The notes: generated by a model not told the origin, from the letters alone. A DNA stretch of 32,542 nt from Candidatus Omnitrophota bacterium (GCA_041652615.1 JBAZGZ010000001.1:1-32542); one strand, 5' to 3'; positions 3,570 to 24,907 are shown, numbered from the stretch's first letter. Numbers and translations: made by a program.

Positions 3570-4517
3570 ATGGATAAAATGGTAGTTTTGAGCGGCAACT
3601 CGAATAAAGAGTTAGCTGTAAAGATAAGTAAGGAATTGAAAGTTAAGCTTGCAGAAGTAATGACAGTTCGCTTTAGTGACGGAGAAATAAGGGTAAAGGT
3701 TGAAGATAATGTAAGAGGTAAAGATGTTTTTGTTGTCCAATCTAATTGCCCGCCGGTCAATGAAAACATAATGGAGCTTTTGATAATCATCGACGCGTTA
3801 AAACGGGCCTCGGCCAATCGCATAACCGCGGTGATACCTTATTTCGGTTATGCGCGCCAGGATAGGAAAGATCAGCCGCGCGTGCCTATAACCGCGAAAC
3901 TTGTGGCAAATCTTTTAACGGTGGCGGGAGCGAATCGTGTTTTAGCTCTTGATTTGCATGCCGGCCAGATTCAAGGTTTTTTTGATATACCGGTGGATCA
4001 CTTGTTTGCGATTAATGTTTTTGTCGATTATTTTAAGAAAATTAAAATAAAAAATCTTGTTATCGTGTCGCCGGATGTTGGCGGTATAAAGATGGCGAGG
4101 GCTTATGCAAAGAAATTTCATGCCGGTTTGGCAATTGTTGATAAAAGAAGAAATACCCCCGACGCTACTGAAGTAATGCATATTCTTGGCGAAGTCGAAG
4201 GTAAAAATGTTATTCTGGTTGATGATATAGTTGCAACTGGCAGTTCACTGGTTGAGGCAGCAAAAGCGCTCAAAGAGGCGGGAGCGAAGAAAATTTTTGC
4301 CGCTATTTCTCACGGAATACTTTCTGCCAATGCAGTAGAGAAGCTGGAAAATTCAAATATAGATTATCTTGTAATTACCGATTCTATTCCTCTGGGCGAG
4401 GAAAAGAAGAGTAAAAAAATAAAAGTTGTTTCGGTGAATAAATTATTCGCGGAAGCAATCAGAAGGATACATTTTGAGCAATCAATAAGCGTGCTTTTTG
4501 ATTCAATAAGGAGATGA
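3570..4517 (+). CDS. prs: Ribose-phosphate pyrophosphokinase
   Basis: AGGAGA Shine-Dalgarno upstream of the ATG. Prs-typical motifs are present: YFGYARQDRK and the VSPDVGG / DDIVATGSS PRPP-binding loop. Confidence 0.92.
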   Translation: MDKMVVLSGNSNKELAVKISKELKVKLAEVMTVRFSDGEIRVKVEDNVRGKDVFVVQSNCPPVNENIMELLIIIDALKRASANRITAVIPYFGYARQDRKDQPRVPITAKLVANLLTVAGANRVLALDLHAGQIQGFFDIPVDHLFAINVFVDYFKKIKIKNLVIVSPDVGGIKMARAYAKKFHAGLAIVDKRRNTPDATEVMHILGEVEGKNVILVDDIVATGSSLVEAAKALKEAGAKKIFAAISHGILSANAVEKLENSNIDYLVITDSIPLGEEKKSKKIKVVSVNKLFAEAIRRIHFEQSISVLFDSIRR

Positions 4518-4690
4518 AATGAGGCAGCAACTTTTCAAGCCTCTAGTGGCGTAGAAAAGCTGCGTAGCCGAATTTCACCCAGCACTAATTTTTATATAAG
4601 CAATTTAGTGCGAGGAAAATTAGTGCTGGGTTTAATTCGCACTATCATTTTTTCTTCGCCACTAGGGCTTGAAAAAATGATGTGCTCATT
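4518..4690. repeat. Composite structured repeat, locus A: left module (-), central hairpin, right module (+)
   Basis: Left module 4518-4577. Central perfect 15-bp stem is CCCAGCACTAATTTT (4578-4592) with AAAATTAGTGCTGGG (4616-4630). Right module 4631-4690 ends at the rplY Shine-Dalgarno. Confidence 0.85.
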
Positions 4691-4702
4691 AAAGGAGATA
4701 AC

Positions 4703-5458
4703 ATGGAAAGGGTAAAGATTGAAGCGACCTTAAGGGAAAAATTAGGTAAAGAAACAGCAAAGAAAGTAAGGTTTAAGGGTAATGCTCCCGCGATAGTTTA
4801 CGGTAAGGGCGTAAACCTTGCGGTTGAGATACAGGTGGCAGGGTTAAAAGCTTTAAGAGCAATACATTTTTCACAAGGTGCGGTAATCGATATAGATTTA
4901 ACCGGCCAGGATAAGAAAGAAAATTGTTCTGTTCTGATTAAGGATGTACAGTATCATCCATTAACAGAGGCGATTACGCATATAGACTTTATAAGGGTTT
5001 CTCTTGAGGAGAAAATAAAAGCGCACGTTCCTGTCGTCCTTAAGGGCGAGCCAAAAGGCGTGAAAGAAGAAGGAATCCTTTCCCAGATACTTTGGCAGCT
5101 TACCATTGAAGCTCTTCCTCTGGATATTCCGGAAAAAATTGAAGTAGATGTTACTCATCTAGGGATAGGTAATTCTGTGCATGTTGATGAAGTTAAAGTG
5201 CCGGAAAATGTAAAAATAGTTAATTCTCCCGATGAAACTGTTGCAACGGTTGTAGAGAAAGAAGAAGAAGTCGCGGCTACTGTCGCAGATGAAACAACCC
5301 CTACGGGCCCTGAGGTAATAAAAGAGAAGAAGGAAGTTGAAGAAGGTGAGGCCGAGGGCGAAGAGGGCAAGGCGAAAGGAAAAGAAGAGCCCAAAGGTAA
5401 AGAAGAGGCTAAGCCGAAAGAAGAAGCTAAAAAGGCTCCGGAAAAAGGGAAGAAATAA
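4703..5458 (+). CDS. rplY: Ribosomal protein L25 / general stress protein Ctc, with a long K/E-rich C-terminal tail
   Basis: ATG at 4703 is preceded by AAAGGAGA (4691-4698). The listed GTG at 4682 lies inside the repeat module. The prs-ctc-pth gene order is a common bacterial arrangement. Confidence 0.85.
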   Translation: MERVKIEATLREKLGKETAKKVRFKGNAPAIVYGKGVNLAVEIQVAGLKALRAIHFSQGAVIDIDLTGQDKKENCSVLIKDVQYHPLTEAITHIDFIRVSLEEKIKAHVPVVLKGEPKGVKEEGILSQILWQLTIEALPLDIPEKIEVDVTHLGIGNSVHVDEVKVPENVKIVNSPDETVATVVEKEEEVAATVADETTPTGPEVIKEKKEVEEGEAEGEEGKAKGKEEPKGKEEAKPKEEAKKAPEKGKK

Positions 5459-5573
5459 TGAACACATCATTTTTCCAAGCCGAAGGCGTCAGGAAAAATG
5501 ATAGTGTGAATTACCCCGCCGAACGTGGCAAAATTATCGAAGAGAATTTTGCCACATTTTTAGTGAGGCGGGG
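5457..5573 (-). repeat. Structured repeat, locus B: module (- orientation) plus CCCCGCC...GGCGGGG-clamped hairpin
   Basis: Module 5457-5513 overlaps the rplY stop codon (TAATGAACAC). Clamp is CCCCGCC 5514-5520 with GGCGGGG 5567-5573. Inner perfect 11-bp stem is GTGGCAAAATT / AATTTTGCCAC with loop ATCGAAGAG. Confidence 0.85.
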
Positions 5574-5644
5574 TGATGAGATAAGCGTTACGTACGTGGC
5601 TATCGAAATAATTACAGTTAATTGAAATTCAGAACATCAAATAA

Positions 5645-6208
5645 GTGAAAGTTATAGTTGGATTAGGCAATCCGGGTTTAAAATATAAAAATAATCGCCA
5701 TAATGCCGGATTTATGGTGCTTGATGAGATAGCCAAGCACGAAAAAGTTCTTTTTAAAAAAAGTTTCCTTTGGAACTGTTACTTTGTTAAGATAACGGCC
5801 GGGCAAGAGGTAATGCTTTTAATCAAGCCTCTGACATACATGAATAATTCGGGTCGTTGCGTTAAGAAGATTTTTTCAAAGTATGTGTTGGAAGCTAAAG
5901 ATTTATTGATAGTCTATGATGACGCTGATTTGCCTCTTGGCGCGCTTAGGTTAAAAACTTGCGGTTCAAGCGGCGGCCATCAGGGGTTAGCTTCGATAAT
6001 TACCCAGTTGAATTCGCAAGATTTTCCAAGATTAAAGCTTGGGATAGATAAAAATACCGGCGCAGATTTAGCTGATTATGTTCTTTCTGATTTTTCGGCG
6101 CAAGAAAAAGAAACAATTAGTGAATCAATTGCTAAGGCTGCTAGCGCGTGCGTAGATTGGGTTAAACGCGGAAACGAATACGTAATGCAAAATTATAATA
6201 ATTGTTAA
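5645..6208 (+). CDS. pth: Peptidyl-tRNA hydrolase
   Basis: GTG start gives VKVIVGLGNPG, the canonical Pth N-terminus. The NRHNAGF motif is present. Confidence 0.9.
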   Translation: MKVIVGLGNPGLKYKNNRHNAGFMVLDEIAKHEKVLFKKSFLWNCYFVKITAGQEVMLLIKPLTYMNNSGRCVKKIFSKYVLEAKDLLIVYDDADLPLGALRLKTCGSSGGHQGLASIITQLNSQDFPRLKLGIDKNTGADLADYVLSDFSAQEKETISESIAKAASACVDWVKRGNEYVMQNYNNC

Positions 6209-6315
6209 CGCGAATAAACGCGAATTTAGACCTGAATGGTTTTATTAAAGTATAAACGCGAATGCGCGCGAATAAAAAGGTTTATAGTTTTATTTTATTC
6301 GCGCGCATTCGCGTT
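6209..6315. repeat. CGCGAAT motif array plus perfect 23-bp palindrome directly after the pth stop
   Basis: CGCGAAT occurs at 6209, 6219, 6257 and 6267 (10-nt phasing within each pair). ATTCGCG occurs at 6297 and 6307. The stem is AACGCGAATGCGCGCGAATAAAA / TTTTATTCGCGCGCATTCGCGTT. Confidence 0.8.
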
Positions 6316-6354: not shown

Positions 6355-6693
6355 GTGAATACGAATTTTGAAAGCATGATTATTGTGTTGCCTGATATCG
6401 GAGACCAGGCACAGGAAGAGGTTTTTCAGAAGGTAACAAAAAAAATAGAAAGTCTTGAAGGCAAAGTTACGAGCGCCAAGATTTGGGCTAAAGAAAGAAG
6501 TCTTTCCTACCCGCTGAAGGCTTCCGGTTCACAGAAGAAAAAATACTTAAAAGGATGTTATTGGCTCATTGTTTTTTCTATTGATACCGAAAAATTAGCT
6601 GATTTAAGAGAAACAATAAGGCTTGAAGAAAAAATATTGCGCAGCATTATTTTAAACAGGGAGAATTTAAAAGTCGAAAATATAGTAAGCTAA
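6355..6693 (+). CDS. rpsF: Ribosomal protein S6
   Basis: AAGGAGG Shine-Dalgarno then GTG. The rpsF-ssb-rpsR order is conserved, and the YESMIIVLPD-like N-terminus fits S6. Confidence 0.85.
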   Translation: MNTNFESMIIVLPDIGDQAQEEVFQKVTKKIESLEGKVTSAKIWAKERSLSYPLKASGSQKKKYLKGCYWLIVFSIDTEKLADLRETIRLEEKILRSIILNRENLKVENIVS

Positions 6694-6705
6694 GGCGGTG
6701 CGATT

Positions 6706-7128
6706 ATGGCGAGTTTAAATAAGGTTTTTTTGATGGGAAATTTGACGCGTGATCCGGAATTGCGATATACCCCGCAAGGCGCGGCAGTTGTAAATCTTGG
6801 TCTTGCGGTAAACAGGTATTATAAAGATAAAAGCGGCCAGAACCAGCAGGATACGTGTTTTTTAAATGTAATAGTTTGGGGTCAAATGGCTGAAGTCTGC
6901 AATCAGTATCTTCAAAAGGGAAGGCAGATTATCGTAGAGGGCAGGCTCCAATCAAGAAGTTGGAAGGATAATGATGGTAAAAACCGCACGACTATAGAAG
7001 TAAAGGCGGATAACGTCCAGTTTATGTCTAATCGTGCAAAGGAAGAAACTAAAGAAGTTGATTTAGGCGAGGCACCGGCAGAGTCGACCGGCGCGGAGCA
7101 TAATGAAGAACAAGGAGAGGTGAATTAA
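6706..7128 (+). CDS. ssb: Single-stranded DNA-binding protein
   Basis: OB-fold N-terminus (LNKVFLMGNLTRDPELRYTPQG). It sits between rpsF and rpsR. Confidence 0.9.
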   Translation: MASLNKVFLMGNLTRDPELRYTPQGAAVVNLGLAVNRYYKDKSGQNQQDTCFLNVIVWGQMAEVCNQYLQKGRQIIVEGRLQSRSWKDNDGKNRTTIEVKADNVQFMSNRAKEETKEVDLGEAPAESTGAEHNEEQGEVN

Positions 7129-7129
7129 G

Positions 7130-7393
7130 ATGTTTAAACCAAAATCAAAACCAAAACTAAAACTAAAAACAAAAACACCAAAGATGATCGGATTTAAAAA
7201 AAGCTGTTCGTTTTGCAAAAAAGAATTTAATATTGATTATAAAAATATCGAATTGCTTTCGCACTACATATCGTCAAGAGGCAAGATAGTATCCAGGCGT
7301 GTAAGTGGAAATTGCGCCAAGCATCAGCGAAAAGTTACAAAAGAGATGAAAATTGCACGGTTTTTGAGTATATTCCCGTATTTGGCTAGATAA
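7130..7393 (+). CDS. rpsR: Ribosomal protein S18 with a K/P-rich N-terminal extension
   Basis: GGAGAGG Shine-Dalgarno lies 9 nt before the ATG at 7130. The S18 core is present (CSFCKKEFNIDYKN...GKIVSRRVSGNCAKHQRKV...ARFLSIFPY). Confidence 0.85.
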   Translation: MFKPKSKPKLKLKTKTPKMIGFKKSCSFCKKEFNIDYKNIELLSHYISSRGKIVSRRVSGNCAKHQRKVTKEMKIARFLSIFPYLAR

Positions 7394-7400
7394 GATTTAT

Positions 7401-7522
7401 TACCCCGTCTCATGAAAGAGGTTGTGAAATTCTCTTCGATAATTTCACAATATTCGGCGGGGTTAATTCACACTATTATTTTTTCTGCGCCACTAGCGGC
7501 TGGAAAAAATGATGTGTTCAAT
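7401..7522 (+). repeat. Structured repeat, locus C: clamped hairpin plus module (+ orientation)
   Basis: This is the reverse-complement arrangement of locus B. Clamp is CCCCGTC 7403-7409 with GGCGGGG 7456-7462. Inner stem is TTGTGAAATT / AATTTCACAA with loop CTCTTCGAT, the reverse complement of the locus B loop. Module 7463-7522 ends at the rplI Shine-Dalgarno. Confidence 0.85.
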
Positions 7523-7538
7523 AAGGAGGTTTACTGCA

Positions 7539-7982
7539 GTGAAAGTTATTCTTTTAAAAGATATCGATAAATTAGGTAATGAAGGCAGTGTGTTGGAAGT
7601 TAAAGAAGGCTATGCGCGTAATTTCTTATTGCCGCAAAAGCTTGCCATGAAAGCAACCAAAGATAGCTTTCGTGAAATTGAAGAGATGAAAAAGAGAAAA
7701 GATAAAGTAGAGGAAAAAACAAAAAAAGAAGCTTTGGAGTTTAAGGTAAAGATAGAAGCCTTGTCGGTAACCATAACCCAGGAGGCAAAAGATACCGAAG
7801 AGATATACGGCTCAGTAGGAGAACAGCAAATTCTAAAAGCCTTGAAAGATGAAAGCGTGATCCTTGAGAAAGGTAAAATAGAAATAACTGAACCTATAAA
7901 AAAATTGGGCGTTTATAATTTAAAAGTCAGGCTTCATCCTGCTGTAGAGGCTAATCTACGCGTGTGGGTAATGAAGAAATGA
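7539..7982 (+). CDS. rplI: Ribosomal protein L9
   Basis: GTG at 7539 follows AAGGAGG (7523-7529) and gives VKVILLKDIDKLG, the canonical L9 N-terminus. The listed start at 7509 lies inside the repeat module. Confidence 0.88.
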   Translation: MKVILLKDIDKLGNEGSVLEVKEGYARNFLLPQKLAMKATKDSFREIEEMKKRKDKVEEKTKKEALEFKVKIEALSVTITQEAKDTEEIYGSVGEQQILKALKDESVILEKGKIEITEPIKKLGVYNLKVRLHPAVEANLRVWVMKK

Positions 7983-9337
7983 TTGCTACAAATACTCCTC
8001 AAATAGCAGATAAACTTCCGCCGCAAAACATTGAAGCAGAAATGGCAACGCTTGGCGCCATGCTTCTCAATGAAGCGGCCATTTCGGAAGTTATGGAAAT
8101 TGTAAATGAGGACTATTTCTATAAAGAAGAACATAGAATTATTTATTCAAGCATCATCTCGTTGTTTGACTCACGGAAAAAAATTGATATCCTTACCATC
8201 TCCGAAGATTTAAATAAAAAAAAGCTCCTCGAAAAATCCGGAGGTTCATCTTACCTGGCAACCCTTGCCGATTTCGTTCCTACCTCAGCAAACGTTTTAC
8301 ACTACGCGCGTATAGTTAAAGAGAAAGGCGTTTTGCGCCTGCTTATTAACAGCGCGACCCAAATTGTTTCTTTGGCATACAGAGGTGATGAAGAAGTCAG
8401 CACTATTCTGGATAAGGCGGAGAGGCTTATATTCGAAATAAGTGATAAAAGAATAGAGGGCGGGTATATCCATATTAAGGAAATAATAAAAGATGGCATA
8501 GAATTAATTGAATCTCTTTACCATAAGAAATCGCACATAACCGGTATCCCTACCGGTTTTACGGACTTTGATATCAAAACCGCCGGGCTTCAAAAAGGAG
8601 ATCTGATTATTGTGGCCGGTAGGCCGTCGATGGGCAAAAGCGCGTTAGCCACATCAATGGCTGAATACGCGGCAGTTGAAGAAAAAGTACCGGTTGCTTT
8701 TTTTAGCCTTGAAATGTCGAAAGAGCAGTTAATGCAGCGTTTTTTATGTTCACAAGCAAAAGTCGATATGCACAAATTAAGAACCGGTTTTTTAGCGCCT
8801 TCGGAATGGCCGATTTTGACTAGCGCGGCCGGCAGGCTTTCCGAAGCTCCGATCTTTATTGATGATACGCCGGCAATAAATATTTTTGAATTAAGAGCAA
8901 AAGCAAGGCGCCTTAAAGCGCATCATGATATACAACTTATCCTGGTTGACTACCTTCAAATGGTGCGATGTATGCGCCGGGGAGATAGCCGCCAGCAGGA
9001 GATATCTGAGATTTCCCAGGCGCTCAAAGCTTTAGCTAAAGAGCTTAGTCTCCCGGTTCTTGCGGTGAGCCAGCTATCACGTGCGGTTGAATCAAGGACT
9101 GACCATCGGCCTCAGCTTTCAGATTTAAGGGAATCGGGAGCCATAGAGCAGGATGCTGATGTGGTTGTCCTTTTGCTTAGAGAAGAATATTACAATCCAA
9201 CTCCTGAGAATAGGGGCACAGCAGAAGCGATTATCGCAAAGCAGCGCAATGGCCCTGTAGGCAGCGTAAATTTGGGGTTTATCCGTGAATATATGAAGTT
9301 TGTTAATCTCTCTAAGACTCAAGGCGAGGAGTTCTAA
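7979..9337 (+). CDS. dnaB: Replicative DNA helicase
   Basis: ATGA overlap with the rplI stop codon. N-terminal PPQNIEAEMATLGAML, Walker A GRPSMGKSA, and a RecA-like C-terminal domain. Confidence 0.92.
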   Translation: MIATNTPQIADKLPPQNIEAEMATLGAMLLNEAAISEVMEIVNEDYFYKEEHRIIYSSIISLFDSRKKIDILTISEDLNKKKLLEKSGGSSYLATLADFVPTSANVLHYARIVKEKGVLRLLINSATQIVSLAYRGDEEVSTILDKAERLIFEISDKRIEGGYIHIKEIIKDGIELIESLYHKKSHITGIPTGFTDFDIKTAGLQKGDLIIVAGRPSMGKSALATSMAEYAAVEEKVPVAFFSLEMSKEQLMQRFLCSQAKVDMHKLRTGFLAPSEWPILTSAAGRLSEAPIFIDDTPAINIFELRAKARRLKAHHDIQLILVDYLQMVRCMRRGDSRQQEISEISQALKALAKELSLPVLAVSQLSRAVESRTDHRPQLSDLRESGAIEQDADVVVLLLREEYYNPTPENRGTAEAIIAKQRNGPVGSVNLGFIREYMKFVNLSKTQGEEF

Positions 9338-9344
9338 AAATACA

Positions 9345-9383
9345 ACGCGAATGTTTACGAATTGCACACAAATATTCACAAAT
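9345..9383 (+). repeat. Phased heptamer array after the dnaB stop
   Basis: ACGCGAAT, TACGAAT, CACAAAT and CACAAAT end at 9352, 9362, 9373 and 9383, giving 10/11/10-nt phasing. No mirrored arm is present. Confidence 0.6.
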
Positions 9384-9429
9384 AAAAAGTTTGCGTAGTG
9401 GAAAGCGGGAAAATCTAAAAAAATCTTTT

Positions 9430-9612
9430 TACCCCGCCTCATAGAAGATGCTGGCTCATTGCCCCGCCTCGCAGGGGATGTCAAAAAAATCTGTTTCCCT
9501 GTAATAGGAAATTCCAGGGACTATGCCATATTTTTTTTGACGCTTGGCGGGGTTAATTCGCACTAGTATTTTTTCTTCGCCACTATTGGCTTGAAAAAAT
9601 ACTGTGCTCATT
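9430..9612 (+). repeat. Structured repeat, locus D: collapsed partial copy plus long clamped hairpin plus module (+)
   Basis: TACCCCGCCTCATAGAAGATGCTGGCTCATT (9430-9460) resembles an internally deleted unit. Clamp is CCCCGCC 9462-9468 with GGCGGGG 9546-9552. Nested stems are GTCAAAAAAAT/ATTTTTTTTGAC and TCCCTG/CAGGGA. Module 9553-9612. Confidence 0.8.
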
Positions 9613-9627
9613 AAATCTCTTATTGAG

Positions 9628-9656
9628 TTGACTTTAAATAAAAAAACCCTTATAAT
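9628..9656 (+). promoter_or_regulatory. Consensus sigma70-type promoter positioned for a leaderless bamA mRNA
   Basis: TTGACT (9628-9633), 17-nt spacer, TATAAT (9651-9656). The bamA ATG begins at 9663, 7 nt after the -10 hexamer, and there is no Shine-Dalgarno. Confidence 0.6.
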
Positions 9657-9662
9657 ATTTTA

Positions 9663-11936
9663 ATGCGAACACTAATTTCCGCTCTAACCATTTTCTTTGT
9701 ATCATTTTCCGCTCTAGCCTCAAGCGAAGATACTGTCGCGCGTATTGAAATCAAGGGCCATAAGTTTGTAAGCGACGCGACCATTGTTTCAAAAATAAAA
9801 CTTCGTTCCGGACAGACCTACAACGAGAACGTCATTAATGAAGACATAAAAAACCTTTACGCTACTGGTTTTTTTGAGACCGTTGAGGCAGCAAAAGAAA
9901 CCACGCCTGAGGGGGTAGTTGTTACTTTTAAAGTTAAAGAAAAACCCGTTCTTAAGAAGCTCGACATAGAAGGCGCTCATTTTATCCGCAAGAAAAAAAT
10001 TAGTGAAGCAATCGATATTAAAGAAGGAGCTTTTGTTGATGAGTACAAGCTGAAAGAAGTTGCCCGTAAAATAAAAGATCTTTATGCAACAAAAGGATTT
10101 AACCAGGCTAAAGTAACATACCAATTTGATATCAGCAAAGATAAGGATGAAGCTCGGGTTAAATATATTATTGAAGAAAAGGGCGTCCTTAAGGTGAGGC
10201 AGGTAAAAATTACGGGGAATAAAAGTATTTCTTCCGGCCGCATAATAAAGCTGTTAAAAACGAAAAAAGCCTGGCTTTTTAATCCAGGGCTTTTTAAGGA
10301 AGATGCTTTCAATGATGATGTTAAGAGGGTAACTGATTTTTACAGGCAAGAAGGTTTTAGTGATGTAAAAGTTGAGCCGGATTTAGTTTTTGGCGAAAAA
10401 GGGATTAATGTCAAAATAAATATTCAGGAAGGAAAGCGTTACTATATCGGTACGGTTAAAATTGAAGGCAACAAGGATGTTTCGCTTGCTGATATAACAA
10501 AGGTAATGATGCTTAAAACTAAAAGCGTGTATAGCGATCAGGCTGTTTACGAAGAGTCTTCACGAATAAGATCTGTTTACGTTGACAAGGGGTATATATT
10601 TGTACAGATTGAACCTCTGACTGTGCTTAATCCGGAAACCCAAAGTATCGACGTTACTTACAAGATAGTTGAAAATCAAGTTGCGTATATTGAACGCATA
10701 GATATTAAGGGAAATGTTAAAACAAAAGATAAAGTTATAAGAAGAGAGTTGCGTGTTTATCCGCAGGAAAAATTTGACGGAGCAAAGGTAAGAAAAAGTA
10801 AAGAGAAGCTTGAGAACCTGGGATATTTTGAAGAAGTAAGATTCGATACAGAGCCTGGCACAAAACCTGACCAGGTTGATCTTACTGTCGATGTTAAGGA
10901 AGCTAAGACCGGACATTTAAGCTTTGGCGGAGGATATAGTTCTATAGATCAATTTGTGGGATTTGTAGAGATAAGCCAGAAAAATTTCGATTATAGAAAT
11001 TTTTCAACTTTTTCGGGTGCCGGACAGGATTTAAGCCTATACGCAAGTCTTGGGACATTAACGAGTTATTACGAATTAAGTTTTACGAATCCATGGATAT
11101 TTGATAAACCATATTCTTTTGGCTTTGACGGCTACAAGAAAGGCCATAAGCAGGATGAAGATGTGGGTTACGGTTATAGCGAAGATATTGTTGGTGGGGA
11201 CTTGCGCTTGGGGCATGAGTTTAACGATGTTCTTAAGGGGCAGATCGCGTATCGTCTTGATAACGTAAAGATTACGGATGTTGTTGATAATGCTACGGCC
11301 GATCTTAAAGATGAAGTAGGTACTAATACCTTAAGCAGCGGAGAGGCTGCTCTTTTTTATGATACGCGTGATAATGTATTCTCGCCATTAAAAGGTGTGT
11401 ACTTTACTAATAATTTTCAACTTACCGGCGGCCCATTTGGCGGGACTAAAAATTTTGTAAAATATTCTACGCGATTCAGCTATTATTACCCGCTTATTAA
11501 TAAATCAGTTATAGAGCTTCGCTTAAGAGGTGGCTGGGCGGATCCGTTTTCTGATACCAATAAAGTGCCTATTTATGAAAGGTTCTTTGCCGGTGGCGCC
11601 AATTCCATAAGGGGTTACGAAGAAAGAAAAGTCGGCCCCGAAGATCCAGCTACTAATGATCCTCTTGGCGGTGAATCTATGTTTATTGCTAATATTGAAT
11701 ATACGTATCCATTGATGGATTTTTTAAAAGTAGCGACGTTTTTTGATAGTGGCGAGGTTTGGGAAAAGAATGGTGATTTTTTCAGTACTGACTTAAAAAA
11801 GAGTATCGGTCTGGGCATCAGGGTAAAAACACCGATAGGCCCTGTAAGTGTTGACTATGGCTGGCCGCTTGATTTGCTGCCCGGACAAGACAGCAAAGAA
11901 GGTCGTTTTCATTTTAACGTAAGCCGCGGATTTTAA
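9663..11936 (+). CDS. bamA: Outer membrane protein assembly factor BamA (Omp85 family)
   Basis: Signal peptide, repeated POTRA-like segments (IEIKGHKFVS, LDIEGAHFIRKKKI, VKITGNKSIS, VKIEGNKDVS, IDIKGNVKTKDKVIRREL) and a C-terminal beta-barrel ending in RGF. Confidence 0.92.
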   Translation: MRTLISALTIFFVSFSALASSEDTVARIEIKGHKFVSDATIVSKIKLRSGQTYNENVINEDIKNLYATGFFETVEAAKETTPEGVVVTFKVKEKPVLKKLDIEGAHFIRKKKISEAIDIKEGAFVDEYKLKEVARKIKDLYATKGFNQAKVTYQFDISKDKDEARVKYIIEEKGVLKVRQVKITGNKSISSGRIIKLLKTKKAWLFNPGLFKEDAFNDDVKRVTDFYRQEGFSDVKVEPDLVFGEKGINVKINIQEGKRYYIGTVKIEGNKDVSLADITKVMMLKTKSVYSDQAVYEESSRIRSVYVDKGYIFVQIEPLTVLNPETQSIDVTYKIVENQVAYIERIDIKGNVKTKDKVIRRELRVYPQEKFDGAKVRKSKEKLENLGYFEEVRFDTEPGTKPDQVDLTVDVKEAKTGHLSFGGGYSSIDQFVGFVEISQKNFDYRNFSTFSGAGQDLSLYASLGTLTSYYELSFTNPWIFDKPYSFGFDGYKKGHKQDEDVGYGYSEDIVGGDLRLGHEFNDVLKGQIAYRLDNVKITDVVDNATADLKDEVGTNTLSSGEAALFYDTRDNVFSPLKGVYFTNNFQLTGGPFGGTKNFVKYSTRFSYYYPLINKSVIELRLRGGWADPFSDTNKVPIYERFFAGGANSIRGYEERKVGPEDPATNDPLGGESMFIANIEYTYPLMDFLKVATFFDSGEVWEKNGDFFSTDLKKSIGLGIRVKTPIGPVSVDYGWPLDLLPGQDSKEGRFHFNVSRGF

Positions 11937-12019
11937 TGAGCGTATTATTTTTTCAAGCCTCAAGTGGCGTAGGAAAAATAATAGCGCGAATTATCCCCGA
12001 GAGTAGCGATGGGGGGGGG
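11935..12019 (-). repeat. Structured repeat, locus E: module (- orientation) plus short CCCC...G9 hairpin
   Basis: Module 11935-11994 overlaps the bamA stop codon (TAATGAGCG). Its stem sequence differs from other copies but pairing is kept (TATTATTTTT / AAAAATAATA). CCCC is at 11995-11998 and a G9 run at 12011-12019. Confidence 0.8.
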
Positions 12020-12133
12020 TAATGAATATCCAGCCAACCCTAAAGACAATCGTAAATCTGCTCATATGCATGGGTATCTTGAGCGTAAAAAGTTAAATAC
12101 GAACTACTAACGTTTATTAAAAAGGAGGAAACA

Positions 12134-12640
12134 ATGAAAAAGACAATAGTTTCGCTGGTTGCATTTTTGGTTATTTGTTCTTTTTGCTCGGTTTCTTACG
12201 CAAAAGAACTAAAGATCGGGTATCTTAATTTTTTAGAGGTTTTTAATGAATATAAAAAGACGAAAGATTATGATGAAGCTTTAAACAAAAAGACTGAAGA
12301 GAAAGAGAAGCAGCTTAAGGATAAAGGCGCAGAGCTTGAAAAAATGCAGAGCAAATTAAGTGTTTTAAAAGATAAAGAAAAAGACAAAGAACAGAAGAAA
12401 ATGGATCAAGCCGAAAAAGAGTTTCAGCAATTACGCCGGCAATCGTTGCTTGATCTTAAGAAAGAAAGAGACGAAAAGATGAAAGAAATAGTTGAAGATA
12501 TCGAAAAAACGATAAAGGATTACGCTGAAAAAAATAACTTTGATCTTATTCTTCACGGAAGCGCTGTGCTTTATGGTGCTAAGAGTATCGATATCACCGC
12601 TGACGTTCTTAAGATTGTAAACGTACATGGGAAGAAATAA
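12134..12640 (+). CDS. skp: Periplasmic chaperone Skp/OmpH
   Basis: AAAGGAGG Shine-Dalgarno, signal peptide and a K/E-rich coiled-coil body. It occupies the conserved bamA-skp-lpxD position. Confidence 0.85.
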   Translation: MKKTIVSLVAFLVICSFCSVSYAKELKIGYLNFLEVFNEYKKTKDYDEALNKKTEEKEKQLKDKGAELEKMQSKLSVLKDKEKDKEQKKMDQAEKEFQQLRRQSLLDLKKERDEKMKEIVEDIEKTIKDYAEKNNFDLILHGSAVLYGAKSIDITADVLKIVNVHGKK

Positions 12641-12894
12641 TTCCCAGGTTTATTCCTTGAAGCTATTGGTTTCGAGGGTTAGAATTTAAAGTTGTCTTAA
12701 ACGGGCGCTTTAATAATTATATTTGATGAATTATTATAGCGTTGAGAGTGTATAAATACTGCATAATAAATAGCTTGTTATTTGGTTTCGGGCTATTTAG
12801 CCTAATGTTTTACCGAAAGCATGGTCTGTGAATCCTAGCCTAAAATCGGTGGTTTTCGGGTTAATCTTTAGTCGATATTATTTAAGGTGTAGAT

Positions 12895-13941
12895 ATGTTG
12901 AAGCTGAAACTTTCGGAAATTGCAAAGCTTGTAGGGGGAGAGTTAAGCGGAGATCCTGAAATCGTCATAACCGGCATTTCAGGAATAAAAGAAGCAAAAG
13001 AAGGCGAAATAACTTTTTTAGCTAATCCGAAATACGATTCTTTGCTGCAGGCTACTCATGCTTCGGCAGTTATTACCTCAAAAGAAACAGAAAACTCGAT
13101 TAGACCCACCATTAAGACCGATAATCCTTCAGTCGCCTTTGCAAAAATCGTAAACGTATTTGCGCCAAACGCTATTTGTCATCCAAAAGGAATCCATCCA
13201 AGCGCAGTAATATCTTCAAAAGTAAAACTGGGGAAAGGTGTTGCTGTGGGTGCGCATGTTATTATCGAAGACAACAGCGAAATTGGTGATGGCACGATAA
13301 TTTATGGTAATTGCTACATAGGCAACGATACGAAGATAGGGGAAAAAGCAATTATTTACCCAAATGTTTCGATAAGAGAAAGAATCAGCATTGGCAACAA
13401 TGTAATTATCCATTGTGGAGCTGTTATAGGCAGTGACGGTTTTGGCTTTGCTAAAGTTAAAGGCGTACAGGAGAAAATTCCTCAAATCGGAACAGTGATA
13501 ATCGAGGATGATGTTGAAATCGGCGCAAATGTTACTATTGACAGGGCGCGGTTTGATAAAACATTCATCGGTAAAGGTACTAAAATTGATAATCTTGTGC
13601 AGATTGCGCATAATGTTATGATAGGTGAAAATTGTCTTATAATTGCGCAGGCTGGCATTTCAGGGAGTACGGTTTTGGGAAGAGAGGTTATTATTGCTGG
13701 CCAGGCCGGGCTTGTGGGGCATATAACTGTTGGCGATAATGCCATTGCCGCGGCACAAGCGGGTGTTACTAAGTCAATACCACCAAAGACTATGGTTTCA
13801 GGATATCCTGCCAGGCCGCACGATGTCGCTAAGCGTGTAAATGCCTGTGTCCAGGGGTTACCTAAATTGTACAGCAAGATAAAGGAATTAGAGCAAAAAA
13901 TTGAAGAGCTTGAAGCAAAATTTGAGAATAAAAATGGATAA
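12895..13941 (+). CDS. lpxD: UDP-3-O-acylglucosamine N-acyltransferase
   Basis: The N-terminal [12 protein letters not shown]...ITFLANPKY motif is LpxD-typical. A long hexapeptide-repeat beta-helix follows. Confidence 0.9.
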
Positions 13942-15241
13942 ACAAAAAACAATAAAAGCAAAAGTGTTATTTGAGGGCGTTGGGTTACATAGCGGCCAGA
14001 GAACAAAGATTGAAATCCTCCCGGCCCAGGCAAATACCGGGATAATTTTTATACGCCAGGATGCCGGAGGTCAGTTGATAAAAGGTGATTTTTGTTCTTT
14101 GGTTGCTCCGGAAAAATTTCCCCGCCGCACCTCGATAGGCGTAAAGGATATTTATATTCACACCGTAGAACATCTAATGGCGGCTTTCCATTTGCTAAAA
14201 ATTGATAATGCTCAGATTAATGTTTGGGGAGAGGAAATCCCTGGCATGGATGGAAGCGCAAAAGAGTTTGTTGATAAAATTAAAAATGCTGGAATTGCAG
14301 AGCTTGACGCGATTGTAAATTGTATTGTTATAAAGGAGCCGCTTTGGGTTGAAGAGGGGTCTTCGACTATAGTTGCGTTACCATATCCGTCTTTAAGAAT
14401 TTCTTACGCGCTAAAATATGATAACCCTCTTATCGGCTCAGGTTATGTTGATTTAATCATAGACGGTAATGCGACAGAAAATGTTTTTCAGGCGCGCACG
14501 TTTTGTCTTGATGATGAAGTAAAACATCTTCAAGATAGCGGGTTGGGTAAAGGTGCGAATTACGACAATACTCTGGTGGTTTCTAAGGACGGTGTATTGA
14601 AAAATAAATTACGGTTTCCTGATGAATTTACCCGGCACAAAATTTTAGACTTAATCGGTGATTTGTATCTGGCCGGTCCGATTAGAGGCTATATTATTGC
14701 GATTAAAAGCGGGCATTCTCTTAATATGAAACTTCTTGAGAAGCTGCGCAGGTACAAAGAAAAAAATATCGGTGCGGGAGTTGGATCTCAGACTTCATTT
14801 GTTCCCAGAGGTAATCATTTAAGTAGTGAAGATATAATGAAACTCCTTCCTCATCGTTATCCGTTTTTGCTTGTTGACAGAATTGTTGAGATGGAAAAAT
14901 TTAAACGTGCGGTAGGTATAAAGAATGTTACGATGAATGAGCATTTTTTTCAGGGACATTTCCCACAACGACCGGTTATGCCCGGAGTTTTGATAATTGA
15001 GGCGATGGCGCAAGTCGGTGGGGTTCTTATGCTTGCAAGTGAAGAAAACAAAGGAAAACTTGCATATTTTATGGCGGCTAATCACGCAAAATTTCGCAAA
15101 CCAGTTGTTCCCGGGGATCAACTGGTTATGGAAGTGGTTGCCGGGAAAATACGTACTAAAACAGGTACAGTCTATGCAAAAGCTTTTGTTGATGATAAGC
15201 TTGTGGCTGAGGCTGAACTTATGTTTGCGCTTGTGGACTAG
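13934..15241 (+). CDS. lpxC-fabZ: Fused UDP-3-O-acyl-GlcNAc deacetylase / 3-hydroxyacyl-ACP dehydratase
   Basis: ATG at 13934 overlaps the lpxD stop by 8 nt. The LpxC part has GVGLHSG and HTVEHL motifs. The FabZ hot-dog part has [13 protein letters not shown] and FFQGHFP...PVMPGVL. Confidence 0.9.
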
Positions 15242-15246
15242 TAATC

Positions 15247-16023
15247 ATGAAAAATAAAATTGATTCAAGAGCGATTGTAAGCAAAAAAGCAGAGATCGAT
15301 AAAAATGTAACCATTGGCCCCTATGCCGTAATAGGGCCTTCTGTTAAATTGGGCTCTGGGAGCGTGATTGACGCGTTTGCGCAGGTAATCGGTAATACTA
15401 CGATAGGTAAAAATTGCCATATTTTTTCTTACGCGGTGCTAGGGAATGCTCCACAGGATTTAAAATATAAAGGAGAGCAAAGTTTTCTTGTCGTTGGCAA
15501 TAATAATATTATCCGTGAATTTGTAACTATGAATGTTGGAACAGAAGAAGGCTCTAGAACTATAGTTGGGAATAATAATCTTATTATGGCTTACTCACAT
15601 ATAGCCCATGATTGTGCTGTGGGCAGCGATAATGTTTTGGCAAATTGCGCGACATTAGCCGGTCACGTTACCATAGAAGACAGGGTAACCGTGGGTGGAA
15701 TAGTCGCGATACATCAGTTTTGTCGTTTGGGAACTCTTTCTATGATCGGGGGCTGTTCAAAAGTTGTTCAGGATGTACCTCCTTATTCTGTAAGCGATGG
15801 GCATCCGACTGTTGTCAGGGGTTTGAACCTTATAGGATTAAGACGGGCAAAGTTTCCTCAAACTACAATAAGCTTGCTAAAGAAAGTGTTCAAAATTATT
15901 TTTTTTGATAACCATCCTTTGGCAAAAGCAAAAGAGCTGATAGTTAAAGATTTTCCCGGAATACAAGAAGTCGATTATCTGCTTAAGTTTATTTCATCGT
16001 CAGAGCGCGGCATCTGTAGATAA
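15247..16023 (+). CDS. lpxA: Acyl-ACP:UDP-GlcNAc O-acyltransferase
   Basis: Hexapeptide-repeat beta-helix plus the C-terminal helical domain typical of LpxA (GLNLIGLRRAKF). Position in the lpx cluster supports the call. Confidence 0.9.
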   Translation: MKNKIDSRAIVSKKAEIDKNVTIGPYAVIGPSVKLGSGSVIDAFAQVIGNTTIGKNCHIFSYAVLGNAPQDLKYKGEQSFLVVGNNNIIREFVTMNVGTEEGSRTIVGNNNLIMAYSHIAHDCAVGSDNVLANCATLAGHVTIEDRVTVGGIVAIHQFCRLGTLSMIGGCSKVVQDVPPYSVSDGHPTVVRGLNLIGLRRAKFPQTTISLLKKVFKIIFFDNHPLAKAKELIVKDFPGIQEVDYLLKFISSSERGICR

Positions 16024-16028
16024 CGTTT

Positions 16029-16124
16029 GTATAGAAGCGGATATCCGCGGATCAAAACGCGGATAAATGCAAGCGAGTTGCTGTGCGTAAATCCGCGTAA
16101 GTATCCGCGGTAATCCGCTTCTAC
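16029..16124. repeat. Mirrored GCGGAT motif array after the lpxA stop
   Basis: GCGGAT occurs at 16037, 16047 and 16059. ATCCGC occurs at 16091, 16103 and 16113. Spacing is symmetric (10/12 and 12/10). The motifs are complementary but the spacers between them are not. Confidence 0.8.
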
Positions 16125-16153
16125 AAAATAGAGATTTACAAATATTAGCGTAT

Positions 16154-20305: not shown

Positions 20306-21169
20306 CTATTGACGGTGAGGTTCATTGTCCAGCTCCTGGATTAATTTTTTGCATAAATTAACTTCTTCGAGTCTACCTCTTTTTTGAGCGCCTTTAATAT
20401 AAATTTCGCTTTTTTTCTTAAGTTCAGATAAGGCCATATCATATTCTTTCTTGCTTAAAATGCCGCTTTTAATTACTTTTTTTAATGCATAAATACGGAA
20501 TGTATCCATTGCCGGATACTTTCTTGATAGCTGATCACTGCGGCCGCCTTCTTTTATCGTAAGGTATTCGGGTATTAGATATACCGGAAATTTTGGGGTA
20601 GCTCTTAGCCAGAAATCATAGTCTTCACAAGCTGGAAAATCTTTATCAAAGAGGCCGATTTTCTTAAAAATCGTCTTATTGATTGCTGTTGTTGATAGGC
20701 CTATCGAGCACAGTTTCACGGAATTTTCAAAAACCCACCCGAATGGTTTCTTGTGGTGTTCTTTTTGTGGAAGATACTCGCCGTTTCTATACCATATTTC
20801 TTCCGTATGGAATATTTTGTAATCAGGGTATTTTTTTGTGTATTGATGGGTTATTTTCAGCTTATCCTGGCGAAAGCGGTCGTCGGAATCTAAAAAACAA
20901 ATAAATTCACCGTCGGCCGCGGTTATACCGGTATTACGCGCTTGGCTTACGCCTTGATGTGTTTGATGGAGGTATTTAATTTTATTTTCTGCGTCCTTTG
21001 TATTTCGTTCATCGTCCATTATTTCTTTAGTACCGTCATCTGAGCCATCATCGACAATAATTAATTCATAATTATGGAAAGTTTGCGACAATACAGAATC
21101 TATTGCTATCCTTAGAAAATCTTTGCGATTGTAGGTCGGAATGATTACGCTAAAAAACGGTTTTTTCAT
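20306..21169 (-). CDS. Family 2 glycosyltransferase
   Basis: The start is reassigned to the ATG at 21169 (MKKPFFSVIIPTYNRKD...LIIVDDGSDDGT). It overlaps the upstream radical SAM gene by 20 nt. Confidence 0.85.
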   Translation of the reverse strand: MKKPFFSVIIPTYNRKDFLRIAIDSVLSQTFHNYELIIVDDGSDDGTKEIMDDERNTKDAENKIKYLHQTHQGVSQARNTGITAADGEFICFLDSDDRFRQDKLKITHQYTKKYPDYKIFHTEEIWYRNGEYLPQKEHHKKPFGWVFENSVKLCSIGLSTTAINKTIFKKIGLFDKDFPACEDYDFWLRATPKFPVYLIPEYLTIKEGGRSDQLSRKYPAMDTFRIYALKKVIKSGILSKKEYDMALSELKKKSEIYIKGAQKRGRLEEVNLCKKLIQELDNEPHRQ

Positions 21170-22010
21170 TGTAGTCCATACCTTTGTTGTAGAATTCATT
21201 AAAATCTGGCAGAATACAAAAAAACTTTGCCGGATTGTTTTTTTCGATTTCAGCAATTTCATTAGTTAGTTTTTTAGTAAAGTCTGCATAGGTTTCTTTA
21301 TTTCTGTAAACTTCGCAGAACATATCTTTTGTTTCTTTACCGAATTTTTCTTCTACCAGCGCGCTAATCTTTTTAAAATTACCCATTTTTTTATGATATA
21401 GCTCAATGTCAATTTCCCTGGTGCCGCTCGGTATGAGTTTTATGATTTTTTTAAGTATCGAAACATAGGGCATAAACGGTCCGATATGAATGCGTAGCTG
21501 AATCTTGTTTTTTAAAATTTCCTCAATTGTTTCCAGCCTCATCTTTAAAAGTGAAGAGTTATTTTCAAAGAGTTTTATTATATCGTCTGAGGCGAAGTTA
21601 AGCGTGAAGTAGATTTTATTTTCGCGATTTTTGGCGATAATCGAAAGGTCTTTTTTTATTAGATGAGATTTTGTGAGTATCGTATAGGGGATGTTTTCCG
21701 CGTTAAGGATCTCTAACATTTGTCTGGTGAGCCCATATTTTGCTTCCTGATATTGAAAACACTCTGTGGTTGAGCCAAGGAGGACTCTTTTTGGCCGGGT
21801 GTATTGTAGTTGCTGGCGCAAAACATCCGCAATGTTTATTTTTACGCATAGGGAGTTAAAAAAATCCATATTCTTTATATTTTTATTTTCCTGGGAATAA
21901 CAATAGAGGCATCCAAATTCACAACCGCGATATGGATTTATTACGTAATCCGCAAGCTGTATTTGTGTAGGCGATAACGCTTTTTGGGTCTGTATTATTT
22001 TAATTTCCAT
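21150..22010 (-). CDS. Radical SAM protein, COG1533 / SplB-like (DNA photolyase-like) family
   Basis: The start is reassigned to the ATG at 22010 (MEIKIIQ...). The INPYRGCEFGCLYCYS CX3CX2C motif lies ~27 aa from this start. The listed 38-codon extension is the translation of a GC-rich hairpin. Confidence 0.75.
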   Translation of the reverse strand: MEIKIIQTQKALSPTQIQLADYVINPYRGCEFGCLYCYSQENKNIKNMDFFNSLCVKINIADVLRQQLQYTRPKRVLLGSTTECFQYQEAKYGLTRQMLEILNAENIPYTILTKSHLIKKDLSIIAKNRENKIYFTLNFASDDIIKLFENNSSLLKMRLETIEEILKNKIQLRIHIGPFMPYVSILKKIIKLIPSGTREIDIELYHKKMGNFKKISALVEEKFGKETKDMFCEVYRNKETYADFTKKLTNEIAEIEKNNPAKFFCILPDFNEFYNKGMDYNEKTVF

Positions 22011-22053
22011 ATTATCATTGGCGAAAAATATCCATGAACGATTTACACAGAAT

Positions 22054-22117
22054 ATGTAGGGGATGGGCTTGCCCCATCCCGTATTATTACGGGCGGGGAC
22101 AAGCCCCGCCCCTACAT
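22054..22117 (-). repeat. GC-rich four-segment double hairpin inside the radical SAM operon
   Basis: The sequence is ATGTAGGGGATGGGCTTGCCCCATCCCGTATTATTACGGGCGGGGACAAGCCCCGCCCCTACAT. It forms two adjacent hairpins closed by the outer stem ATGTAGGGG / CCCCTACAT. Confidence 0.8.
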
Positions 22118-22125
22118 AATACATT

Positions 22126-23435: not shown

Positions 23436-23567
23436 GGAAAAGTAGAGAGTAGAGGGTAGAAAGTAGAGAGATAGAAATAGCCAGAGATTTTAAAAATTTA
23501 AAATCTTTAGCTAGAATGATAATGTTAATTCTTCCTCTCTACCCTCTACTTTCTACTCTCTACTTCT
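23436..23567. repeat. 7-nt tandem repeat palindrome in the divergent promoter region
   Basis: Left arm: AGTAGAG AGTAGAG GGTAGAA AGTAGAG AGATAGA. Right arm: CTCTCTACCCTCTACTTTCTACTCTCTACTTCT. The centre holds the palindrome AGATTTTAAAAATTTAAAATCT. Confidence 0.8.
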
Positions 23568-24699: not shown

Positions 24700-24721
24700 A
24701 TCGTTTTTATTAGTGTATAAT
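24694..24721 (+). promoter_or_regulatory. Candidate promoter firing into repeat locus F
   Basis: TTGTAA (24694-24699, includes the hemW stop), 16-nt spacer, TATAAT (24716-24721). The predicted start is ~24728, at the left edge of the repeat. Confidence 0.4.
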
Positions 24722-24723
24722 TA

Positions 24724-24892
24724 AATGAAGCAGCAACTTTTCAAGTCGAAGACGTAGAAAAGTTGCGTAGCTGAATTTAACCCCCACACCAATTGCAAAA
24801 CCAAATGCGTTGGCCCAACAATTGGTGTGGGGGTTAATTCGCACTATCATTTTTCCTGACGCCTAGAGGCTTGGAAAAATGATGTGCTCATT
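24724..24892. repeat. Composite structured repeat, locus F: left module (-), central hairpin, right module (+)
   Basis: Same architecture as locus A. Left module 24724-24780. Central perfect 15-bp stem is CCCCCACACCAATTG (24781-24795) with CAATTGGTGTGGGGG (24819-24833). Right module 24834-24892 ends 3 nt before the AAGGAGG. Confidence 0.85.
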
Positions 24893-24907
24893 AAAAAGGA
24901 GGCAAGT

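Follow-up and report, generated by a model that had tools for sequence, protein, structure and literature searches.

The repeat family reported here is best compared with the bacterial interspersed palindromic repeats of the REP, REPIN, BIME, BOX and Correia kind and with the hairpin ends of IS200/IS605 elements. It was found in a stretch of 32,542 nucleotides from a Candidatus Omnitrophota bacterium (GCA_041652615.1 JBAZGZ010000001.1:1-32542), hereafter called the window, in which a hairpin module of about 60 nucleotides (nt) recurs eight times at six loci (A to F). Modules of two stem types, type 1 and type 2, can be distinguished. They stand alone, beside a GC-rich hairpin (half elements) or as an inverted pair around such a hairpin (full elements). 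The repeat family is genuine and previously undescribed, and lies within the known class of bacterial interspersed palindromic repeats. Its copies are probably non-autonomous repeats of modular, palindromic build, specific to a clade of Candidatus Omnitrophota, of the REPIN, BIME or MITE (miniature inverted-repeat transposable element) kind, with a hairpin that is recognised in trans. An earlier note on this DNA, made from its sequence, had likened the layout to REP/BIME, BOX and Correia elements, and we judge this to be the right comparison.

REPINs consist of two inverted repeats around a variable, always hairpin-forming spacer, and the whole folds back (PMC3337134). The present family resembles the REP and REPIN-RAYT systems in being made of high-copy extragenic palindromes, with singlets beside doublets, no encoded transposase and no regular duplication. 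Additionally, 15 of its elements are inverted doublets with a hairpin spacer, and element A folds as one hairpin. In work by Liang, Rudd and Deutscher from 2015, REPs were reportedly found to be co-transcribed and often placed right after stop codons, and terminating ribosomes are said to be affected when the stop lies in the stem. However, a REP is a GC-rich palindrome of 20-40 nt with a GT[AG]G head, whereas the module is a bulged, A/U-rich hairpin of about 60 nt, and no GTAG head occurs anywhere in an alignment of 98 copies. In contrast to REPINs, the two halves of the doublets differ in subtype (type 2 and type 1) and are polar relative to the genes in 14 of 15 cases; moreover, no RAYT was found within the approximately 0.56 Mb next to modules.

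BIMEs, as Gilson et al. are said to have described in 1991, are a mosaic of a few palindromic unit types and short motifs, and occupy spacers within or at the end of operons. Similarly, the modules combine with at least five families of GC-clamped hairpins, and the neighbouring hairpin is swapped at orthologous sites. Unlike in the BIMEs of E. coli, the sequence is unrelated, the units are much longer, hairpins are nested in loops and the phylum is a different one. In the case of IS608, the work of Ton-Hoang, Dyda and Chandler reportedly established that subterminal hairpins with an extrahelical base are read as single-stranded DNA, and that insertion is guided by a short specific sequence and leaves no duplication. 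The modules recall such IS200/IS605 ends, and also PATEs, by their conserved bulged T, fixed flanking motifs and TAA junctions. They differ in that genes for TnpA, TnpB and IscB were seen neither in the window nor in the loci collected from other genomes, and a TAA target is suggested by only about six junctions.

BOX elements of Streptococcus pneumoniae are modular (boxA-boxB(n)-boxC), form stable structures, lie intergenically near gene starts and insert in or next to repeats (PMC10969869). Compared by architecture only, they are direct, ordered A-B-C units, whereas here inverted modules surround a hairpin. Correia elements (CREE/NEMIS) of Neisseria and other MITEs are foldbacks of 100-250 nt with inverted ends; they lie directly upstream of genes, share their transcripts and, in mRNA, serve as RNase III substrates (PMC10969869). 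However, Correia elements possess 26-bp terminal inverted repeats (TIRs), a TA duplication, an IHF site and outward sigma-70 promoters, whereas the modules have no consistent duplication and no promoter-like site, and their TTAAT...ATTAA ends covary as inverted, not direct, repeats. Overall, REPINs and BIMEs are the match in build and behaviour, with their short palindromes, inverted doublets, mosaic motifs, transcribed spacers, gain and loss of copies, and absence of both duplication and enzyme. Within this class the family stands out by a long unit that is bulged and A/U-rich, by hairpins in nested and mosaic combinations, by the polarity of its doublets and by being conserved throughout a candidate phylum.

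A hairpin module held in sequence and in structure

The eight modules of about 60 nt that the earlier note had placed in the window were all recovered, with an offset of only 1-3 nt. A covariance model built from these eight copies (R1; 62 positions, 23 pairs) gives them 63.8-86.7 bits, and the best unrelated site of the window reaches 12.5 bits. A 22-nt degenerate pattern taken from the 5' half of the modules finds 6 matches in the window versus 0.08 expected, and a mechanical repeat search of the window also recovers the modules (direct family D1, inverted pairs I1-I18). All 8 copies in the 32.5 kb are intergenic.

Every copy forms the bulged, A/U-rich hairpin that had been described, with -14 to -25 kcal/mol and z values of -3.6 to -8.5, on both strands. 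At the base of the module lie a TTAAT/ATTAA helix (P1), a 2x2 TC/TC internal loop, a 4-bp helix and one bulged T. Above the bulge follow an A/U-rich helix of 11 bp, a small internal loop and, at the apex, a GCC/GGC helix of 3 bp. Modules start with TTAATTC and are 57-63 nt long, or longer where the loop carries inserts.

The compensatory changes reported earlier are all present in the sequence: ATCAT/ATGAT becomes AGTAT/ATACT at 9553 and ATTAT/ATAAT at 11935, the apical GCC/GGC becomes GTC/GAC at 24724, and a different stem, GCAACTTTTC/GAAAAGTTGC, is used by the left modules of elements A and F. In the alignment of 98 copies, which was fitted to the model and thus favours pairing, 95.7% of the pair cells are standard, versus 85.0% in shuffled alignments and 38-49% with slid partner columns; the margin over the shuffles is still large. 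Both-sided changes occur at 18 of the 23 pairs (219 cells), and none of 500 shuffles reaches any of five covariation measures.

These changes had been taken to indicate selection on structure rather than on sequence, a reading that is not supported as it was worded. Stem variation is concentrated at pairs 8/110, 9/109, 10/108, 14/105, 15/104 and 22/96 and in the apical helix; apart from the latter, only some six positions of the stem are free to vary. A constancy of 92-99% across species is seen in the pairs of the T-run, in the ends AATTC and CTCATTAA, in the bulged T and in the bases of the TC/TC internal loop, and coding DNA among these species is only 67-81% identical. Sequence and structure of the module are both held.

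Mismatches within the pairs are about equally often G-U (G-T and T-G, 31) and A-C (A-C and C-A, 38). When split by the direction of the surrounding genes, the ratio of G-U to A-C is 15:9 in forward and 13:14 in inverted modules (Fisher p=0.40). Because G-U and A-C are about equal and the strand split is not significant, the covariation is not assignable to one RNA strand; it fits a palindrome at the DNA level, or a hairpin of single-stranded DNA that is read by a protein, just as well.

Module types and composite elements

Type 1, with the stem ATCATTTTTTC, is the commoner form of the module; type 2, with the stem GCAACTTTTC, is a variant of it, and a full element contains one of each. The arrangement of an inverted type-2 module, a GC hairpin and a type-1 module gives a foldback of 150-250 nt. 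The half form, GC hairpin followed by type-1 module, is about 120 nt long, and solo modules are rare. Altogether 15 full elements of inverted module, hairpin and module were found (149-250 nt), and in 14 of them it is type 1 that lies beside a gene start (two-sided binomial p ~0.001).

The division into three-part and half elements in both orientations was borne out, as was the presence in the window of CCCC..GGGG-clamped hairpins adjoining the modules. In the case of A and F, the three-part layout is there, but the best fold does not consist of three separate hairpins: the lowest-energy structure is a single foldback of about 175 nt in which the modules pair with each other (-85 kcal/mol, z -11.7, the energy being that reported for element A). 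The arms of element A, 4532-4592 and 4616-4676 (pair I4), are 74% complementary, and terminal inverted repeats exist in full elements only. A G-run precedes the TTAATTC end in 88 of 110 modules, and a hairpin is adjacent in 101 of the 110. The GC-clamped hairpins fall into at least five families. One of them, family X, is exactly 60 nt long (CCCCGCC...GGCGGGG) and includes the hairpins of window loci B and C; in 17 copies it is 100% paired, with six covarying pairs.

Several observations concern the internal build of the hairpins. GC-rich hairpins are nested in the apical loops of modules (L018 5094-5191, L070 1600-1705, L049 7243-7331 and L010 6493-6578) and in the loops of family-X hairpins (window 9462-9552 and L066 4061-4150). 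The short loop GCCA-CTAGGC resembles the long form GCCA[TGCCTGCCCTTCGGGCAGT]CTAGGC minus its inner hairpin, by insertion in the one or deletion in the other. At L064 1873-1949 and L013 70-129 the apical part is inverted relative to the stem, and both strands score alike (50.2/40.4 bits and 52.0/40.5 bits, respectively), which suggests recombination within the hairpin.

Distribution beyond the window

Species-representative genomes were scanned with the 22-nt pattern, giving at least 79 loci. At least 73 loci lie in at least 13 species-level metagenome-assembled genomes (MAGs), mostly labelled Candidatus Omnitrophota, with one labelled 'bacterium' and one contig binned as Babeliaceae. In the 564 kb around the pattern matches the model finds about 100 distinct modules beyond the 8 of the window. 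No covariance-model match was obtained in five loci of other phyla (Nostoc twice, Lutibacter, Pseudomonadales and Saccharibacteria) or in L034, an unclassified 'uncultured bacterium' bin, and the pattern matches there are therefore due to chance. With copies in at least 13 Omnitrophota MAGs the family is not peculiar to one contig, and since these MAGs are many and independent, an assembly artefact is excluded.

The earlier note had recognised no named family in the repeat, and none emerged from Rfam, E. coli or plasmid comparisons. The whole window gives no Rfam 15 match at the gathering threshold, and at E<=10 only sub-threshold, miRNA-type chance matches over the long foldback; there is no omega-RNA or HEARO match in Rfam. 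A blastn search (word size 11) with element A against 5,426 complete E. coli genomes found no match, including REP/BIME, ERIC/IRU, RSA and boxC, and there are no copies in viral contigs or PLSDB plasmids. A literature search retrieved no description of intergenic repeats in Omnitrophota and no paper linking this phylum with MITE, REP or intergenic repeats.

Some contigs deserve separate mention. L017 (CAYRPI010000155.1, 1675 bp), placed in a 'Candidatus Babeliaceae' bin, contains two good modules (67.7 and 44 bits) together with a clamp of the CCCCACACCCAGC type, and is probably a mis-binned Omnitrophota contig. Truncated modules stand at the start of two loci, lacking the 5' end in L041 (1-53) and the 3' end in L061 (1-34). 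The latter locus spans its whole contig, which fits repeats that break short-read assemblies; the edge in L041 may simply be the end of the fetched stretch.

Gain and loss at orthologous sites

Copies are gained and lost between species. Locus L020 and window 6556-15096 are syntenic, with a nucleotide identity of 77-81%, which in itself would place the window in an Omnitrophota genome. The orthologous spacers of L020 are without the elements of window loci C and E. In the spacer between dnaB and bamA, the window and L020 carry different insertions. Further filled and empty pairs are L068/L004, L019 (a solo 61-nt module)/L029 and, twice, L070/L024. The unoccupied orthologous spacers measure about 18-50 nt. 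Junctions at empty sites lie at TAA, which is either a stop codon or precedes GGAGG; as the cases number about six, a preference for TAA as target is no more than hinted at.

Five sites are shared by two species each (L028/L056, L052/L005, L016/L072, L018/L041 and L024/L055). Here the place and orientation of the module are the same, and the adjoining hairpin is unrelated (53-59% identity). The stems of the modules at these sites differ by paired substitutions, e.g. AACAT/ATGTT versus ATCAT/ATGAT. This pattern reflects either repeated insertion at a hot spot or replacement by recombination among copies.

Probable recognition of the hairpin in trans

If a protein reads the hairpin, stems are expected to covary and the bulge, internal loops and ends to stay fixed. 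The module consensus of each MAG is the same everywhere, and one consensus in all species fits a conserved recognising protein. HUH/Y1 transposases (RAYT and the TnpA of IS200/IS605) are the known enzymes that recognise folded single strands. We therefore consider that the folded, single-stranded hairpin would be recognised by a trans-acting protein encoded elsewhere, which would lead to its spread, and that this protein would most likely be an HUH/Y1 enzyme, RAYT- or IS200/IS605-like.

Being inside transcription units, the elements must be present in mRNA as very stable intercistronic hairpins. There they would probably act in the manner of REPs and BIMEs, blocking 3' exonucleases and offering substrates to RNase III, and where the stop codon lies inside the stem the hairpin would be expected to impede terminating ribosomes. 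Processing by RNase III or RNase E is plausible, as for REP, Correia and ERIC elements (PMC10969869).

Several points weigh against this reading. The mobilising step is one that we purely infer, and tblastn searches of the 0.56 Mb around modules with three Y1 probes (IS608 TnpA, E. coli RAYT and IS200, all approximate sequences) gave nothing better than E=0.4. The unit itself, 60 nt long and A/U-rich, is devoid of the classical REP head. Module identity is 82% within and 80% between MAGs, the latter value being inflated by the recruitment of loci with an exact match to the 22-nt 5'-half pattern. A polarity of 14 in 15, five kept sites and a consensus across species are also expected of a selected RNA or DNA function. 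Finally, 2 of the 15 full elements have a flanking direct repeat of 7 bp (AGGAGAT in window A, ACCTCCA in L036), and locus D has an imperfect one of about 9 bp (AATCTTTTTA and AATCTCTTA, with a single AATCTTTTA in L020). Given these repeats, a DDE-type origin is possible for some copies.

As the earlier note had stated, no transposase is present in the window, and neither is an integrase or a Y1 enzyme. When 671 open reading frames (ORFs) from the loci were clustered, no recurrent neighbour family appeared, only generic ones.

Placement between genes and alternative explanations

Among the 87 modules with genes called on both sides, 80 (92%) lie between co-directional genes. In 43 of 110 modules a Shine-Dalgarno (SD) sequence and start codon follow the outer end within 0-4 nt. 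This end abuts an inverted stop codon in another 21, with the stop inside the terminal TTAA in 16 of these, and many of the remaining outer ends abut an inverted intrinsic terminator. Where the outer end is fused to TAA, this is the upstream stop codon or the TAA of the extended Shine-Dalgarno TAAGGAGG. Much of the tight abutment arises because spacers are about 18-50 nt long, so that there is nowhere else to land without damage. Relative to the genes, 41 type-1 modules are forward and 23 inverted; without the polar full elements, the orientations of half elements are about 27:22, by approximate subtraction. Consensus scans detected no promoter-like or terminator signal within modules.

Such placement raises the question of whether the module is primarily a selected, cis-acting RNA element of polycistronic mRNA, its spread being secondary. 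It could stabilise the transcript as a 5' hairpin directly upstream of the SD, be a site for RNase III, protect 3' ends or act as an attenuator. We regard this as unlikely, if still among the better alternatives. The position between co-directional genes, hence within transcripts, and the invariant unpaired bases amid covarying stems would suit an RNA, but the modules hold no terminator-like or promoter-like signal, and the flanking genes are functionally unrelated. The closeness of outer ends to SD and start codon points in the same direction, but abutment to SD or stop is expected anyway from original spacers of 18-30 nt. In the full elements type 1 is next to the gene start in 14 of 15 cases, whereas half elements occur about equally in both orientations. 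Place and orientation are kept at five orthologous sites while the adjoining hairpin turns over, yet the orthologous spacers of sister species work without the element. As for the wobble pairs, they lean in the direction expected of RNA, more towards G-U in forward than in inverted modules, but not significantly so, and overall the two kinds of mismatch are nearly balanced.

About equally improbable, in our view, is that the elements have been domesticated as a phylum-specific intercistronic punctuation. In that case a dedicated protein would read the bulge and internal loops, would place or keep the polar composite between stop and Shine-Dalgarno, and would set mRNA processing, stability or coupling in housekeeping operons.

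A classical MITE, that is, an internally deleted insertion sequence (IS) with modules as TIRs, mobilised by a DDE transposase with a target duplication of 7-9 bp, is a distinctly weaker candidate. The inverted module ends of full elements, with their 74% complementary arms, would fit TIRs, but the half and solo forms have none, and no parent IS with module ends was seen in the window or loci. As to the duplication, AGGAGAT stands on both sides of element A, removal of which restores an in-frame prs stop (AGA-TAA), ACCTCCA bounds L036 on both sides, and the repeat bounding locus D is single in L020. However, the two 7-bp repeats contain the SD motif, which recurs in flanks, and mismatched flank pairs used as control reach 6 nt. 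In the other 13 of the 15 full elements, any direct repeat of >=3 nt is missing within 3 nt of the ends, and the clean filled and empty pairs L019/L029, L068/L004 and L070/L024 show no duplication.

Slightly less credible still is the idea, which follows proposals for some BIMEs, that the modules are DNA-level sites of a host protein (nucleoid-associated protein, gyrase or regulator) for chromosome organisation, their palindromy reflecting dimeric binding or a cruciform. The symmetric wobble statistics, the short invariant motifs AATTC and CTCATTAA at fixed positions and the same consensus in all species agree with it. On the other hand, 60-nt hairpins with covarying 20-bp stems far exceed operator half-sites, and presence or absence at orthologous sites means that no individual copy is needed.

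Small coupled ORFs like mycobacterial MIRUs, suggested by the TAATG at the start of the inverted module (mini-peptide MST[STLAV]FFQA...), by an ATG at that place in 101 of 111 modules and by the overlap of TAATG with the upstream stop in B and E, can practically be dismissed and were rejected, as the frames, of 3-75 codons, have neither a conserved stop nor a conserved C-terminus, module lengths are spread evenly modulo 3 (45/35/31) and the variable codon 4 is a covarying stem position.

Intrinsic terminators and integron attC sites were also tried and rejected. No module or clamp hairpin was flagged as a terminator, except for a trivial 5-bp stem at 9547-9561, and clamp hairpins are followed by TTAATTC. 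Sites of the attC type are defined by R''/R' boxes (RYYYAAC...GTTRRRY), cassette genes and a nearby intI; here the modules have TTAATTC and CTCATTAA as their ends and housekeeping genes (prs, ctc, rpsR, rplI, dnaB and bamA) as their neighbours, and the window contains no integrase.

The six loci of the window

In the window the elements sit between housekeeping genes that all lie on one strand. Element A occupies the spacer between prs and ctc (L25). Its type-2 module (4516-4576, minus strand; 70.5 bits with R1; hairpin of -23.9 kcal/mol, z -4.3) adjoins the prs stop TGA at 4515-4517 and has the sequence GAAATTCGGCTACGCAGCTTTTC.... The central clamped hairpin, read from the sequence as CCCAGCACTAA...TTAGTGCTGGG at 4578-4630, is the innermost stem of the 175-nt foldback. 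The type-1 module (4632-4692, plus strand; 85.7 bits by the covariance model) runs straight into the SD AGGAGAT, beyond which ctc starts at 4703. The 7-bp direct repeat AGGAGAT around the element, with its left copy at 4509-4515 (plus strand) and its right copy at 4693-4699, is possibly a target duplication or due to chance.

Locus B, between ctc and pth, consists of a type-1 module (5455-5514, minus strand; 71 bits), whose own terminal TTA is the ctc stop TAA (5456-5458), and a GC-clamped family-X hairpin of 60 nt (CCCCGCC...GGCGGGG) at 5514-5573, minus strand. In the rpsR/rplI spacer (locus C), the family-X hairpin at 7403-7462 (plus strand) is an inverted copy of 5513-5577 (pair I3), and a type-1 module (7463-7524, plus strand; 79.6 bits) follows, and then AAGGAGG and the GTG start of rplI at 7539.

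In the case of locus D, between dnaB and bamA, a putative partial clamp fragment, ACCCCGCCTCATAGAAGATGCTGGCTCATTG (9431-9461, plus strand), resembles the 5' half of a family-X hairpin. It precedes a family-X hairpin of 91 nt whose loop encloses another hairpin (9462-9552, plus strand), a long form also present at L066 4061-4150. The type-1 module at 9553-9614 (plus strand) scores 86.7 bits, and downstream of it, before bamA, a consensus scan shows a promoter-like TTGACT-17-TATAAT at 9628-9656 (11/12 match).

Locus E, between bamA and skp, begins with a type-1 module (11933-11994, minus strand; 80.1 bits) whose own terminal TTA is the bamA stop TAA (11934-11936), and continues with a short apparent clamp hairpin, CCCCGAGAGTAGCGATGGGGGGGGG, at 11996-12019. 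A further ~75 nt at 12020-12095 have no counterpart in L020; they start with TAATGAAT and end with GAGCGTAAAA, an echo of the module end TTAATGAGCGTA, and may be a decayed second element. Finally, element F lies between hemW and an unknown ORF, with a type-2 module downstream of hemW (24721-24779, minus strand; 63.8 bits), a central clamped hairpin CCCCCACACCAATTG...CAATTGGTGTGGGGG (24781-24833) of a family also present in L065, L029 and L007, and a type-1 module (24834-24894, plus strand; 74.2 bits) followed by AAAGGAGG and an ATG at 24908.

Other features of the window

A number of further structures were noted. The pth|rpsF spacer holds five copies of AACGCGAAT(N) within 110 nt (6207-6315), with a perfect 23-nt inverted repeat (6255-6277/6293-6315) that has A- and T-tracts on either side, and another exact copy of AACGCGAAT(N) lies at 9344-9353 in the dnaB|bamA spacer. 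The array looks like an operator array or a bidirectional terminator, and Rfam returned only sub-threshold matches for it (rliD and miRNAs). In the lpxA|lpxI spacer, 16012-16143 forms an inverted repeat with 60-nt arms, 72% complementary and full of ATCCGCG(G) motifs. To judge from its half-site, which resembles the ATTCGCG motif of 6207-6315, a regulator of the same kind may have a second array of binding sites here.

The spacer between a radical-SAM gene (minus strand) and the divergent hemW (plus strand) contains, at 23440-23565, an inverted repeat with 40-nt arms and purine-rich units of the AGTAGAGAG/TAGAGGG type. Two back-to-back GC-rich hairpins, GGGGATGGGCTTGCCCCATCCC and GGGCGGGGACAAGCCCCGCCC, lie at 22053-22118, at the junction of two minus-strand radical-SAM ORFs; as they overlap the listed 5' end of ORF 21150-22124, its true start may be further downstream. 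An LpxC-FabZ fusion is encoded at 13901-15241 as one ORF of 446 amino acids (NCBIfam PRK13188, 430 bits), a lineage character unrelated to the repeats. A scan of the window for tRNA and tmRNA found none.

Implications for Omnitrophota

Omnitrophota are uncultivated and known almost only from MAGs. High-copy repeats of 60-250 nt probably explain part of the fragmentation of their assemblies, and the covariance model can be used as a lineage marker, e.g. in the case of the Babeliaceae-binned contig with two modules. The elements inflate spacers that would otherwise measure 20-50 nt, and place very stable hairpins against the stops and ribosome-binding sites of essential genes, including those of ribosomal proteins, DnaB and BamA. 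As its stems covary and the unpaired bases within them are invariant, the family lends itself to a natural test of REP-like recognition, and also of an independent origin of REPIN-type elements outside Proteobacteria. If, in addition, the elements did act as intercistronic punctuation, they would contribute to the control of many housekeeping operons in these small-celled, host-dependent bacteria.

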